Positions 10,179 to 42,267 of a stretch of DNA of 64,000 nucleotides are shown piece after piece. Under the pieces are notes generated by a model. That model ran no database searches, was not told the origin of the DNA, and saw nothing but the letters and a program-made list of their open reading frames with translations. Each line of letters opens with the position of its first letter. Position 1 is the first letter of the stretch. The DNA comes from an uncultured Chlamydiae bacterium (lineage in GTDB: Bacteria > Chlamydiota > Chlamydiia > Chlamydiales > Rhabdochlamydiaceae): contig OY970369.1 in assembly GCA_963718715.1 (NCBI GenBank), positions 166,302-230,301 of the forward strand, read 5' to 3'. Made by a program: the position numbers and the translations under genes.

Positions 10179-10294
10179 TTCTTGGTGACGATAGAGAAGG
10201 GGGAATACCTGATCCCATCCCGAACTCAGAAGTCAAGCCCTTCCTCGCCGATGGTACTGTACACAAGAGTATGGAAGAGTAGGTTGTCGCCAAA
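10179..10294 (+). rRNA. rrf: 5S ribosomal RNA
   Basis: CTTGGTGACGATAGAG…CCCATCCCGAACTCAGAAGTCAAGC…GAGTAGGTTGTCGCCAA. The terminal helix pairs TTGGTGAC with GTCGCCAA. Confidence 0.9.
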
Positions 10295-10304
10295 TTTTTA
10301 TCAG

Positions 10305-10342
10305 CGCCCTAACCGCCGCAAGGCCGTTAGGGCTTTTTTATT
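10305..10342 (+). terminator. Intrinsic terminator of the rRNA operon
   Basis: GCCCTAACCGCC-GCAA-GGCCGTTAGGGC hairpin followed by TTTTTTATTT. Confidence 0.7.
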
Positions 10343-10343
10343 T

Positions 10344-10635
10344 CTTCCTTTGCGTCTTAAGCGGCTTGGCGCCTTCGCGTTGCTCTACAGATTGCAGAAT
10401 AAGTCATAGATATCCAGATTGTGCTGCTCAAAGCAATCAACATGATAAACAGGATAAGCATGATACACATGATGGAAAAAGAAGGGGGGGAGAAGCGGCA
10501 CGCCGCTTCTGTTTCCATTTTTTTATCATGCACATCATGCTTATCCTACCTATCATGTTCCGTGCTCTATGCAATAAACTTGAAACAGATGAAGAGCAAC
10601 GCAAAGGCGCCAAGCCGCTGAGACGCAAAGAGAAG
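10344..10635. repeat. Nested palindromic (MITE-like) element, copy 1
   Basis: Outer inverted arms are 10344-10385 and 10594-10635. Inner arms AACATGATAAACAGGATAAGCATGAT / ATCATGCTTATCCTACCTATCATGTT flank an asymmetric core with a central GAAGCGGCACGCCGCTTC hairpin. A second copy lies at 39067-39490. Confidence 0.85.
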
Positions 10636-15482: not shown

Positions 15483-17045
15483 TTAGTTGTTTTGTGAAAG
15501 TTGGACTATTTTCATCGTTGTTTCTCGCAATTTTGTTGCAAGCGGGGCATTAAGAGGAACGCTGTTGGTTATTTTCTTTTTCTGGAAGTCGATGAGTTCT
15601 TTGTTCATTTGATCGAGCTGCTCTTTTGGCAATCCACGGAAATGAGCTTCATTTTTGGTGATGATCTCCAAAATGGAATCCACGATCTTTTCCGCTTCAG
15701 CGGTGTTGTCGTTTGTGACATTGACATGGGTTAACTTGTCTATTTCTTGGGTCAATTGCTGAGTGGGTAAAGCCTTTGGAAGCGCATCGCGGTTAGCTGT
15801 CCTTAAAACCTCATTCATCTTTGCAAGGTTCTCCTGCATTGTACGGCTACAATCTAATGTCTGCTTTATGAGTATAGATGATAACGGCTCAGAAGGCATT
15901 TGTATTTGGGGAAGAGTGGCTGTTGGTATGAGGAGTGTCGGTGCACTGAGATCAGATTCTAGATATGCTTGCTTTTTAGCTGGGGTCAAGCCAACCGGCT
16001 GCGGAGCGAATTCATCGGCGACAGCATTTATTCTATCCCAGGCTCGGTTTTTACGAGAGATTTCTTTGGCTTTCTCTTTTTCCTCTTCTCGGTTTTCATT
16101 GAACCGAATGTGCTGTTGTAGTTCATTAATCTGCTCATCTTTTTCTTGATTGCGGACTTTTAGCTCTCCAATTTGCTCCTGCGCCTTTTTTTCTTTTTCT
16201 TGATATAGCTTGTCCATCTCATTTATGAACTGAGTTTTTCTATCATCGTGGATTATTAGAGTATTAATTGCCCTTTGTTGCTCTGCAATAACGGTGTTCT
16301 GATTTTCTATACGATGTTGTTTATCCTGCATATCAGCTTCGATCTGACGGCGGCGCGCCTCTTCTTCACGCTGAGTACGTTCAATGCCGTCTTTTAGGTA
16401 GCCGATGTGCGCATCTTTTTCTTGCATCTGAGTGTTCATTTCTTCCATTTGATATTCCATCGCACGCTGGCGCTTTTCCATATTCCTAGTAATTTCAGCA
16501 AAGCGTTCGTTTTGCTCTCTCCAAGCTGCTTCCACTTCTTTTCGGGGGATCAGGTCGCCGCCTGGCGCCGCCTGATCGTGGGGATGAGCTGCAGAGGATA
16601 ATTGGGCGGGGGGGAGATGCTGGAGGTGGTCTTGATGGCATCTGTTCCATACATTATTTGCGGCGTCTAGGACCTCTTTGCCAATCCCATAGAGGAAGAT
16701 ATCCTCCGGAGCAAGACGAGAAAATGCGGCCGGGGTCCAGGAGACGCTCACGCTTCCATCTAGGGCAAAAAAGATGGCAAGGGGGTTCTGGCCTTGTGGA
16801 TAAATTTCGATCGTTCTTTCGGTAAAATAGATGTTGGCGTGGGTTCCTTCACCCGGATTCGATCCGAGCAGAGGTCTAACCACCTCTTTAAAGAAATGAC
16901 TCTCGATTAATCGAGCGACGGGGTCGCTAACAGTCCAAACCCTCAATTCTTCGGCATGATAGGGGCAAAGGGGGAGCCGGCTCGACCTGTCTGGCGAACC
17001 ATAGAGGGATATGGGAGGTTGGGCATCTACATGTGTATGAGTCAT
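15483..17045 (-). CDS. Hypothetical large coiled-coil protein (candidate secreted effector)
   Basis: 520 aa. A globular N-terminal ~150 aa is followed by a long E/K/Q-rich heptad-like region (EKRQRAMEYQMEEMNTQMQEKD…). I recognise no enzymatic motif. It has its own strong promoter. Confidence 0.7.
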   Translation of the reverse strand: MTHTHVDAQPPISLYGSPDRSSRLPLCPYHAEELRVWTVSDPVARLIESHFFKEVVRPLLGSNPGEGTHANIYFTERTIEIYPQGQNPLAIFFALDGSVSVSWTPAAFSRLAPEDIFLYGIGKEVLDAANNVWNRCHQDHLQHLPPAQLSSAAHPHDQAAPGGDLIPRKEVEAAWREQNERFAEITRNMEKRQRAMEYQMEEMNTQMQEKDAHIGYLKDGIERTQREEEARRRQIEADMQDKQHRIENQNTVIAEQQRAINTLIIHDDRKTQFINEMDKLYQEKEKKAQEQIGELKVRNQEKDEQINELQQHIRFNENREEEKEKAKEISRKNRAWDRINAVADEFAPQPVGLTPAKKQAYLESDLSAPTLLIPTATLPQIQMPSEPLSSILIKQTLDCSRTMQENLAKMNEVLRTANRDALPKALPTQQLTQEIDKLTHVNVTNDNTAEAEKIVDSILEIITKNEAHFRGLPKEQLDQMNKELIDFQKKKITNSVPLNAPLATKLRETTMKIVQLSQNN

Positions 17046-39066: not shown

Positions 39067-39490
39067 CCTTTGCGGCTTTGCGGCGTGGTGCCTTTGCATT
39101 AGATAGATATCCAGATTGCTGCTCAAAGCAATGAACATGATAGATAGGATAAGCATGATGTGCATGATAAAAAAATGGCCGCAAAGCGCCATGCCGCTTC
39201 TGCCGCCTCTTCTTTTTCCATCATGTGTATCATGCTTATCCTATCTATCATGTTCATTGCTCTATGAATCTATCCCGCAATTCAGAAATTTTTTCTTTAT
39301 GGTCTTTCCCCCCCCCTATGAAGTTCCGTTTTTCAGCCATGTGTTCACACATTGTCTTCAAAACGGAACTTCGTAGGGGAAAAAAATCCTGCAAAATAAA
39401 AATTTAGCAATTACGGGATAGATTCATGCAAATAAACTTGAAATTGCAAGCTTATAGGTAAAAGTTATGGGCGCCACGCCGCAAGAGCCT
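39067..39490. repeat. Nested palindromic (MITE-like) element, copy 2, composite
   Basis: Outer arms are 39067-39095 and 39469-39490. The flanks GATATCCAGATTGCTGCTCAAAGCAATGAACATGATA… and …TGCTCTATG are collinear with copy 1. The core (39150-39235) is the reverse complement of copy 1. It carries an internal insertion (next feature). Confidence 0.85.
39263..39426. repeat. Second palindromic element inserted inside copy 2
   Basis: Terminal inverted repeats are ATGAATCTATCCCGCAATT (39263-39281) and AATTACGGGATAGATTCAT (39408-39426). An inner 20-nt perfect inverted repeat is CCCCTATGAAGTTCCGTTTT / AAAACGGAACTTCGTAGGGG. It interrupts the CTATG|CAA(A)TAAACTTGAAA junction that is continuous in copy 1. 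Confidence 0.6.
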
Positions 39491-42090: not shown

Positions 42091-42267
42091 CTTAGAGACT
42101 GTCCACAAACTTAGGTTCTGTCGATTTTCGGGTTCTTTTGAGCCGATTTTGCATTCTTTTTTGGGGGGTCATATACGCAGTTGATATTACCCCCCAAAAA
42201 AGAATGCAAAATCGGCCAAAATAATCCCGAAAATCGACGAACCCTTAGTTTGTGGACAGTCTCTTAG
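42091..42267. repeat. 177-bp near-perfect palindrome with GTTTGTGGACAGTCTCT(A/T)AG termini
   Basis: The left arm is 42091-42168 (CTTAGAGACTGTCCACAAACTTAGGTTCTGTCGATTTTCGGG…TTTTTTGGGGGG). The right arm is 42190-42267 (CCCCCCAAAAAA…CCCGAAAATCGACGAACCCTTAGTTTGTGGACAGTCTCTTAG). The left end touches the Shine-Dalgarno of the M48 gene. Confidence 0.9.

Follow-up and report, generated by a model that had tools for sequence, protein, structure and literature searches.

A palindromic repeat with an inverted centre behind the rRNA operon of an uncultured chlamydial bacterium: probably a rare, fixed mutation rather than a switch

Introduction

Directly behind the rRNA operon of an uncultured member of the Rhabdochlamydiaceae lies a nested palindromic element (10344-10635; copy 1) whose centre reads in the opposite direction to that of a second copy (copy 2) in the same window, by which we mean the whole stretch of 64,000 nucleotides that was analysed. 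The original prediction, made from the letters of the DNA, took this pair to be the footprint of an inversion across inner inverted repeats, and proposed either an invertible switch or the flip-flop of a cruciform-prone MITE. The locus therefore raises a simple question: is the orientation of the centre set by a device that turns it, or was the centre turned once, by accident?

The window lies within a closed 2.218-Mb genome of 48.5% G+C. A gene for Hc1, a histone-like protein of chlamydiae (Pfam PF07432, E=1e-18), marks the organism as an environmental chlamydia. Repeats are almost completely lacking in classical Chlamydia (PMC2878342); a repeat-rich environmental relative is useful for the study of genome dynamics in obligate intracellular bacteria. 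The reading that we favour, with a probability of roughly 0.68, is that copy 1 is a decayed member of a dispersed repeat family (family 1) lodged in hairpin arms, and that its centre was flipped by a replication error, a rare mutation that became fixed and does not act as a switch.

Results

Anatomy of the element behind the rRNA operon

The 16S-23S-5S operon ends with the 5S rRNA gene (10181-10295, + strand; Rfam RF00001, 90 bits), which is followed on the same strand by a terminator-like hairpin and T-run at 10306-10341, built on the inverted repeat 10306-10317/10322-10333. There is a terminator-like site at 10320-10336, with TTTATTTCTT after it, and the element lies directly 3′ of these features. 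The nested arms that had been predicted around an asymmetric core are present: the outer arms pair over 30 nt at 93% complementarity (10360-10389/10590-10619) and over a further 10 nt at 100% (10348-10357/10621-10630), while the inner arms are contained in a 56-nt inverted repeat of 75% (10425-10480/10518-10573). Folded as single-stranded DNA, the whole element reaches -85.2 kcal/mol, as against a mean of -36.4 for shuffled sequences (z = -12.8). Together with its multicopy, intergenic nature, this bears out the description of a cruciform-prone, MITE-like element.

The anatomy is nevertheless composite. The outer 42-nt arms had been counted as part of the same element, but they are part of another repeat family, which is also found elsewhere in solo copies. 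Both the left (10344-10385) and the right arm (10594-10635), neither of which carries a strand assignment, are made of a GC-rich hairpin repeat with CTTTGCG../..CGCAAAG units at a period of about 8 nt, distinct from the inner element. There are 29 arm matches of this family at about 20 loci in the genome, many of them solo hairpins that hold no inner element. The same repeat is seen at genome positions 15689-15793, 687025-687114, 937527-937620, 1696236-1696317 and others, and family-1 copies are often adjacent to it. Its arms consist of tandem units of about 8 nt, (A/C)CGCnnAG. Two arrangements of the repeat, circular permutations of each other, are seen: CAACGC...AAAGA-loop-TCTTTGCG...GTTG, and the one with this order reversed.

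Within these hairpin arms sits the family-1 element proper. It comprises an asymmetric left flank, ATATCCAGATTGTGCTGCTCAAAGCAAT (10410-10437, + strand); an inner left arm of tandem 9-mers, CATGATnnn (10439-10464, +); a 69-nt centre that is inverted relative to the family consensus and hence is assigned to the - strand (10465-10533); an inner right arm (10534-10559, +); and an asymmetric right flank, CCGTGCTCTATGCAATAAACTTGAAAC (10560-10586, +). Copy 1 is a decayed and internally deleted member of the family; perfect inverted repetition in its arms extends over no more than 14 nt, as against 33 nt in copy 2.

A family of 29 loci

BLAST searches of the genome with copies 1 and 2 place the family-1 core at 29 loci. 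The comparison of two copies on which the prediction was framed stands insofar as the two cores do lie in opposite orientation, but with about 29 loci it can be given a direction: copy 2 is the canonical form and copy 1 the derived one. The arrangement of copy 2 is found at 27 of the 29 loci, where the core and its two flanks are about 87-97% identical to the consensus, and a flipped centre is found only in copy 1 and at genome position 1476957-1477080. Each of the 29 loci falls between genes, be they divergent (7 loci), convergent (8) or in tandem, and the members are dispersed, non-coding and about 140-400 bp long, as expected of MITE-like elements. The longest form, of about 400 bp, is bounded at its ends by inverted repeats of about 55 bp (TAGACTTCTTGCATAACCTC...CCCATAA), and there are many deletion derivatives. 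The inner arms are formed by four tandem 9-mers. No family-1 copy combined two intact ends with a comparable empty site from which a target-site duplication could be read. At genome 1504089-1504410 a family-1 copy, a near-emptied family-1 remnant in GC-rich hairpin arms and a terminal-repeat fragment lie side by side, an arrangement that gives evidence of probable recombination or deletion among repeat modules.

The left part of copy 2 occupies 39103-39265 (+ strand), and its arms form the perfect 33-nt inverted repeat; the left arm is at 39133-39159, the centre at 39160-39228 and the right arm at 39229-39255. The right flank of family 1 resumes (ATGCAAATAAACTTGAAAT...), together with a degenerate outer arm, only at 39426-39490 (+), and the outer arms pair as 39078-39092/39470-39484. 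The intervening 39266-39425 (+) is an unrelated, nested MITE of 160 bp with terminal repeats GAATCTATCCCG.../...CGGGATAGATTC and a 2-bp AT target duplication (39264-39265 and 39426-39427), for which copy 1 represents the uninterrupted site. The 160-bp MITE recurs at genome 263424-263587, 1829226-1829384 and 1914084-1914181 with AT or GA duplications; 2-bp target duplications are seen at three sites (AT, GA, AT). The copy at 1829226 lies inside another family-1 copy, at a different site and in the opposite orientation; the MITE has entered family-1 copies twice, independently. The duplications, and the differing sites and orientations within family-1 copies, confirm real mobility and nesting.

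Family 1 itself has no evident mobilising partner in the genome. A search for a cognate autonomous element found its terminal-repeat motifs only beside family-1 copies. The transposase search, which covered the DDE_3 and Y1 families, returned no DDE_3 (IS630-type) transposase. Y1 (HUH) genes are present, in three insertion sequences that carry tnpA and tnpB, measure about 1.7 kb and are 99% identical, plus four or five remnants; the ends of these insertion sequences are unrelated to the palindromic repeat families. Copies of this IS200/IS605 type lie at genome 1361259-1361624, 2082688-2083053 and 375191-375556, where a Y1 tnpA of 152 aa has beside it, in divergent orientation, an ORF of about 383 aa that is presumably tnpB. 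A REP/REPIN-RAYT system was considered and rejected, since the Y1 genes belong to a multicopy insertion sequence, have no palindromic repeats within 2.5 kb and have unrelated ends.

Relatives in other genomes

The family-1 arm pattern was absent from 300 genomes of the order. It was matched at least 14 times in one uncultured genome (G317; contig CAZLDZ010000054.1 and others), where the element is a shorter relative of about 95 bp with the same 9-mer arms and a different centre. That genome also contains CACAGAG-rich repeats like those of the window. CATGATnnn arms around different or shorter centres were seen at L009 1370-1470 and in L023-L034 (all of G317) and at L002 930-1085 (genome G004). 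In metagenomes, a scan with the family pattern found a single minimal canonical copy on one JGI contig (L040 1585-1700), the pattern specific to the arms of copy 1 had no match, and the scans returned no locus orthologous to that of copy 1. Since the 9-mer arms are common to elements with different centres, the arms are the conserved part, which hints that they may be a recognised or functional module.

Orientation of the centre and its breakpoints

To assign orientation, a consensus was built from 25 canonical family-1 copies and used as a stand-in for the ancestral state, and each segment of copies 1 and 2 was scored against it. When the consensus centre is compared with its own reverse complement, only 52 of 69 positions agree, so the centre is asymmetric enough for an orientation to be assigned, as the prediction had assumed. 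The centre of copy 1 (10465-10533) agrees with the consensus at 49/69 positions in forward and 63/69 in reverse-complement orientation. Its flanks are forward: the left scores 25/27 (17/27 in reverse) with all diagnostic positions in the forward state, and the right 24/26 (16/27 in reverse). In copy 2 the centre is forward, at 67/69, as are the flanks. The claim that the two cores are reverse complements of one another between collinear flanks is therefore confirmed.

A position-by-position comparison, combined with a profile of 17 asymmetric diagnostic pairs, puts both switches of orientation inside the symmetric 27-nt arm GAACATGATAGGCAGGATAAGCATGAT. The profile of copy 1 runs FFFFFFFFF and then RRR...R, with the change falling within the symmetric arm, so that the left inner arm contains the left breakpoint and the right inner arm the right one. 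This is the footprint of inversion across the inner repeats that had been proposed. The second flipped locus, genome 1476957-1477080, has the same structure of forward flanks and a reversed centre. The two inverted copies differ from the expected inverted consensus at 12 and 24 positions, none of which is shared, and so there is no sign of a common inverted master copy.

An error of assembly, in which a segment between inverted repeats was resolved in the wrong orientation, would produce the same picture, and such segments are indeed ambiguous in short-read assembly graphs. An independent Logan short-read contig (L039, run ERR12035940), in which the neighbouring 162-aa orphan gene is identical, ends exactly within the outer arm of copy 1; a break there can be counted in favour of an artefact, and is expected of a dispersed repeat. 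The arms of copy 1, however, contain only 14 perfect bases, below the usual assembly k-mers, which leaves the assembly path unambiguous. The genome is one closed 2.2-Mb contig, and flipped centres occur at seven loci in two families (see below). We regard an artefact as exceedingly improbable.

Is the element a switch or a gene?

An asymmetric segment flanked by inverted repeats is the layout of an inverton, whose orientation might here govern a terminator or promoter downstream of the rRNA genes. The flip in copy 1 even places the better terminator-like site, a GC hairpin at 10491-10510 followed by a run of seven T on the + strand, on the rRNA-sense strand. The distribution of orientations argues against this: the split of 27:2 departs from 50:50 with a binomial p≈3e-6 (computed for 2/28), by which fast, unbiased flipping is rejected. 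The arms of copy 1 have decayed to 14 perfect bases, and the other inverted copy is flanked by divergent genes, a setting in which neither terminator nor promoter logic applies. Among the ORFs listed beside copy 1 no recombinase was seen, the neighbours being the rRNA operon and the orphan 162-aa ORF, which has no Pfam match. The search for a promoter in the element gave a single weak promoter-like match, no more than shuffled sequences give. The invertible switch of the original prediction is thus not upheld, and an active, reversible inverton is highly unlikely to explain the locus.

A role in termination was rejected more generally, since family-1 copies occur equally in divergent, convergent and tandem contexts. 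In tandem contexts there is an orientation bias of 10/13 (p=0.09), opposite to what a terminator role predicts. The hairpin and T-run in the centre of copy 1 are read as a coincidence, because the operon already has its terminator upstream of the element and because the trend in tandem contexts runs the other way.

The short ORFs inside both copies had been taken for by-products of nucleotide conservation, and that view stands. They have no Pfam match, and the apparent coding signal is not convincing. Frame +1 of the family-1 consensus is open across all 176 nt (for example at 10421-10621 of the window) and shows 76 synonymous and 135 non-synonymous changes, as compared with about 18% synonymous in the other frames. 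A small number of hot sites, with the positions that mirror them, account for the synonymous excess, and the three-base periodicity vanishes if one counts sites instead of summing over them (35/32/28). The family alignment has frequent gaps of one or two bases. A coding element was rejected on these grounds. An Rfam search of the element gave nothing at the gathering score, only hairpin-like miRNA noise.

Flipped centres and homogenised arms in a second palindrome family

Long palindromes were surveyed by a k-mer antidiagonal scan, chosen since whole-genome self-BLAST is too insensitive for palindromes; it found about 151 loci, which make up 1.1% of the genome. The largest family, and the dominant repeat of the genome, has 95 copies of about 172 bp with 78-nt arms and a 10-nt asymmetric loop; a member lies in the window at 42094-42264 (no strand assigned). 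This family is unrelated to family 1, and so offered an independent check on the frequency of flipped centres. Copies were classed by the asymmetric loop TATCAACTTGCGTATA together with two diagnostic motifs specific to the arms. The loop is flipped relative to the arms in five of the 46 copies that could be assigned and concordant with them in 41, and in six copies both arms are of the same type (AA or BB), that is, homogenised. By our reading the flipped copies appear to span at least three sequence subtypes. Arm correction is seen in family 1 as well, where a position that is mismatched between the arms has become paired by conversion at 12 of 29 loci, nine in one direction and three in the other. 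Since both flips and homogenisation also occur in the unrelated 172-bp family, they point to a general mutational process rather than to a property of one element.

The ages of the flipped copies tell less in favour of this process. In the 172-bp family they are no more diverged than the others, and divergence in that family gives no support to flips accumulating slowly in place.

These data also bear on the idea that the centre flips while the element is being mobilised, through a hairpin or single-stranded intermediate, so that copies are born flipped much as the terminal hairpins of parvoviruses and poxviruses flip and flop. The similar, low frequency in two unrelated families (2/29 and 5/46) would suit such a process, as would the age of the flipped 172-bp copies. 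Y1 (HUH) transposases act on single-stranded hairpins, and the genome encodes them; the only Y1 genes, on the other hand, reside in the ordinary 1.7-kb insertion sequence with unrelated ends, and neither a mobilising enzyme nor an intermediate is known for family 1 or the 172-bp family. Moreover, true flip/flop replication predicts proportions of about 50:50 and not about 10%. Flipping at mobilisation is, in our view, quite unlikely.

Related to it is the suggestion that centres flip-flop continually within the population, with about 10% flipped in both families, through cruciform or hairpin processing or hairpin-based mobilisation. We consider this very unlikely. If it were true, orientation would matter because of the terminator-like hairpin in the centre, which differs between the strands, as it does behind the rRNA operon.

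A model for the inversion

In the model that we prefer, the 69-bp centre of copy 1 would have been inverted once, with both breakpoints in the symmetric 27-nt arm, by an error of replication in which intermolecular template switching between the arms turned the spacer around. The inversion would be old and fixed and would not be regulated, and other long palindromes of the genome would be subject to the same process, which should leave occasional flipped centres and mutually corrected arms. Template switching between inverted repeats is known to yield both arm homogenisation and spacer inversion, the latter by its intermolecular route, and long arms are favoured (PMC8604942); it has also been documented in bacteria (PMC5941160). 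Both marks are found in the repeats described here, in which the spacer is wholly reverse-complemented with breakpoints in the arms, and arms are homogenised. What counts against this interpretation is the length of the spacer, 69 nt, whereas the documented spacer inversions, in yeast, are of 2-5 nt (PMC8604942).

Recombination of the RecA type across the arms would yield the product expected of template switching as well. A further route to it is ectopic gene conversion or recombination, in which a donor copy of the family pairs with copy 1 in flipped register and converts the centre only, leaving the flanks of the recipient untouched. The genome offers 29 homologous copies as donors, the reshuffling of repeat-family modules between loci is clear, and breakpoints in the arms are predicted here too. 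Against this, the centre of copy 1 is itself diverged (63/69) and has private changes, such as a run of seven G, so that a recent conversion from a consensus-like donor is not indicated, and the flip of a 10-nt loop between 78-nt arms, as in the 172-bp family, is explained more simply as an intramolecular event. Conversion from another copy is an unlikely source of the flipped centre. Template switching, recombination between the arms and ectopic conversion have the same outcome in the sequence, and the sequence alone cannot separate them. The molecular mechanism, and the occurrence of the inversion in place, are what we infer from the pattern as a whole, and for that pattern template switching appears to be the best-supported mechanism.

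Discussion

The region behind the rRNA operon is best regarded as a stack of three selfish palindromic repeat families and not as a regulatory device, and the internal ORFs of the element should not be annotated as genes. The flipped centre indicates no new mechanism or function and is a fairly ordinary feature. The interest of the genome is that it preserves, in nature, the traces of a mutational process: flipped centres (2/29 and 5/46) and homogenised arms can be counted in two families, and one of the inverted spacers, at 69 nt, is unusually long.

The likeness to the invertible switches, such as fimS/FimBE, hin and the Bacteroides invertons, lies in inverted repeats that bracket a segment found in two orientations. 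In contrast to those systems, no recombinase was found beside copy 1 and there is no evident promoter in the segment, the orientations are skewed 27:2, and the arms of the flipped copy 1 have decayed.

The family as such is closer to the bacterial MITEs and small palindromic repeats, examples of which are the Correia elements of Neisseria, the enterobacterial RU and ERIC sequences and the Rickettsia palindromic elements. Like them, family 1 is short (~140-400 bp), non-coding, dispersed, intergenic and present in tens of copies; it folds into a long hairpin by means of extensive inverted repeats, terminal or internal, and copies nest, the nested 160-bp family having 2-bp target duplications. 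It differs from them in that no cognate autonomous insertion sequence was found in the genome and no target duplication could be defined among the family-1 copies, and in that its arms are built of tandem 9-mers (CATGATnnn), common to elements with different centres in another uncultured genome. Reviews of such small bacterial repeats are available (PMC3184786, PMC2229807).

The flip itself resembles the spacer inversions attributed to template switching (the Ripley model; PMC8604942, PMC5941160, PMC8794818) in the clean reverse complement of the whole spacer, the breakpoints in the arms, the homogenisation of arms in the same class of sequence, the recurrence at independent loci and the long arms. 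Unlike the yeast cases, with spacers of 2-5 nt, the spacer here is 69 nt long and is itself a quasi-palindrome. In contrast to the published cases in general, the substrate is a multicopy mobile repeat, the family consensus takes the place of an outgroup, and the mechanism is one that we infer.

A last parallel is offered by the minute inversions of chloroplast non-coding DNA, in which a short segment between stem-forming inverted repeats flips recurrently and homoplasiously, and does so without a dedicated recombinase. Such minute hairpin-loop inversions are mentioned in plastome papers such as PMC12371153. In both settings a non-coding segment between stem-forming inverted repeats flips recurrently; in the organelle this is seen at single-copy loci compared across species, whereas here it is seen in a bacterium, among paralogous copies within one genome.
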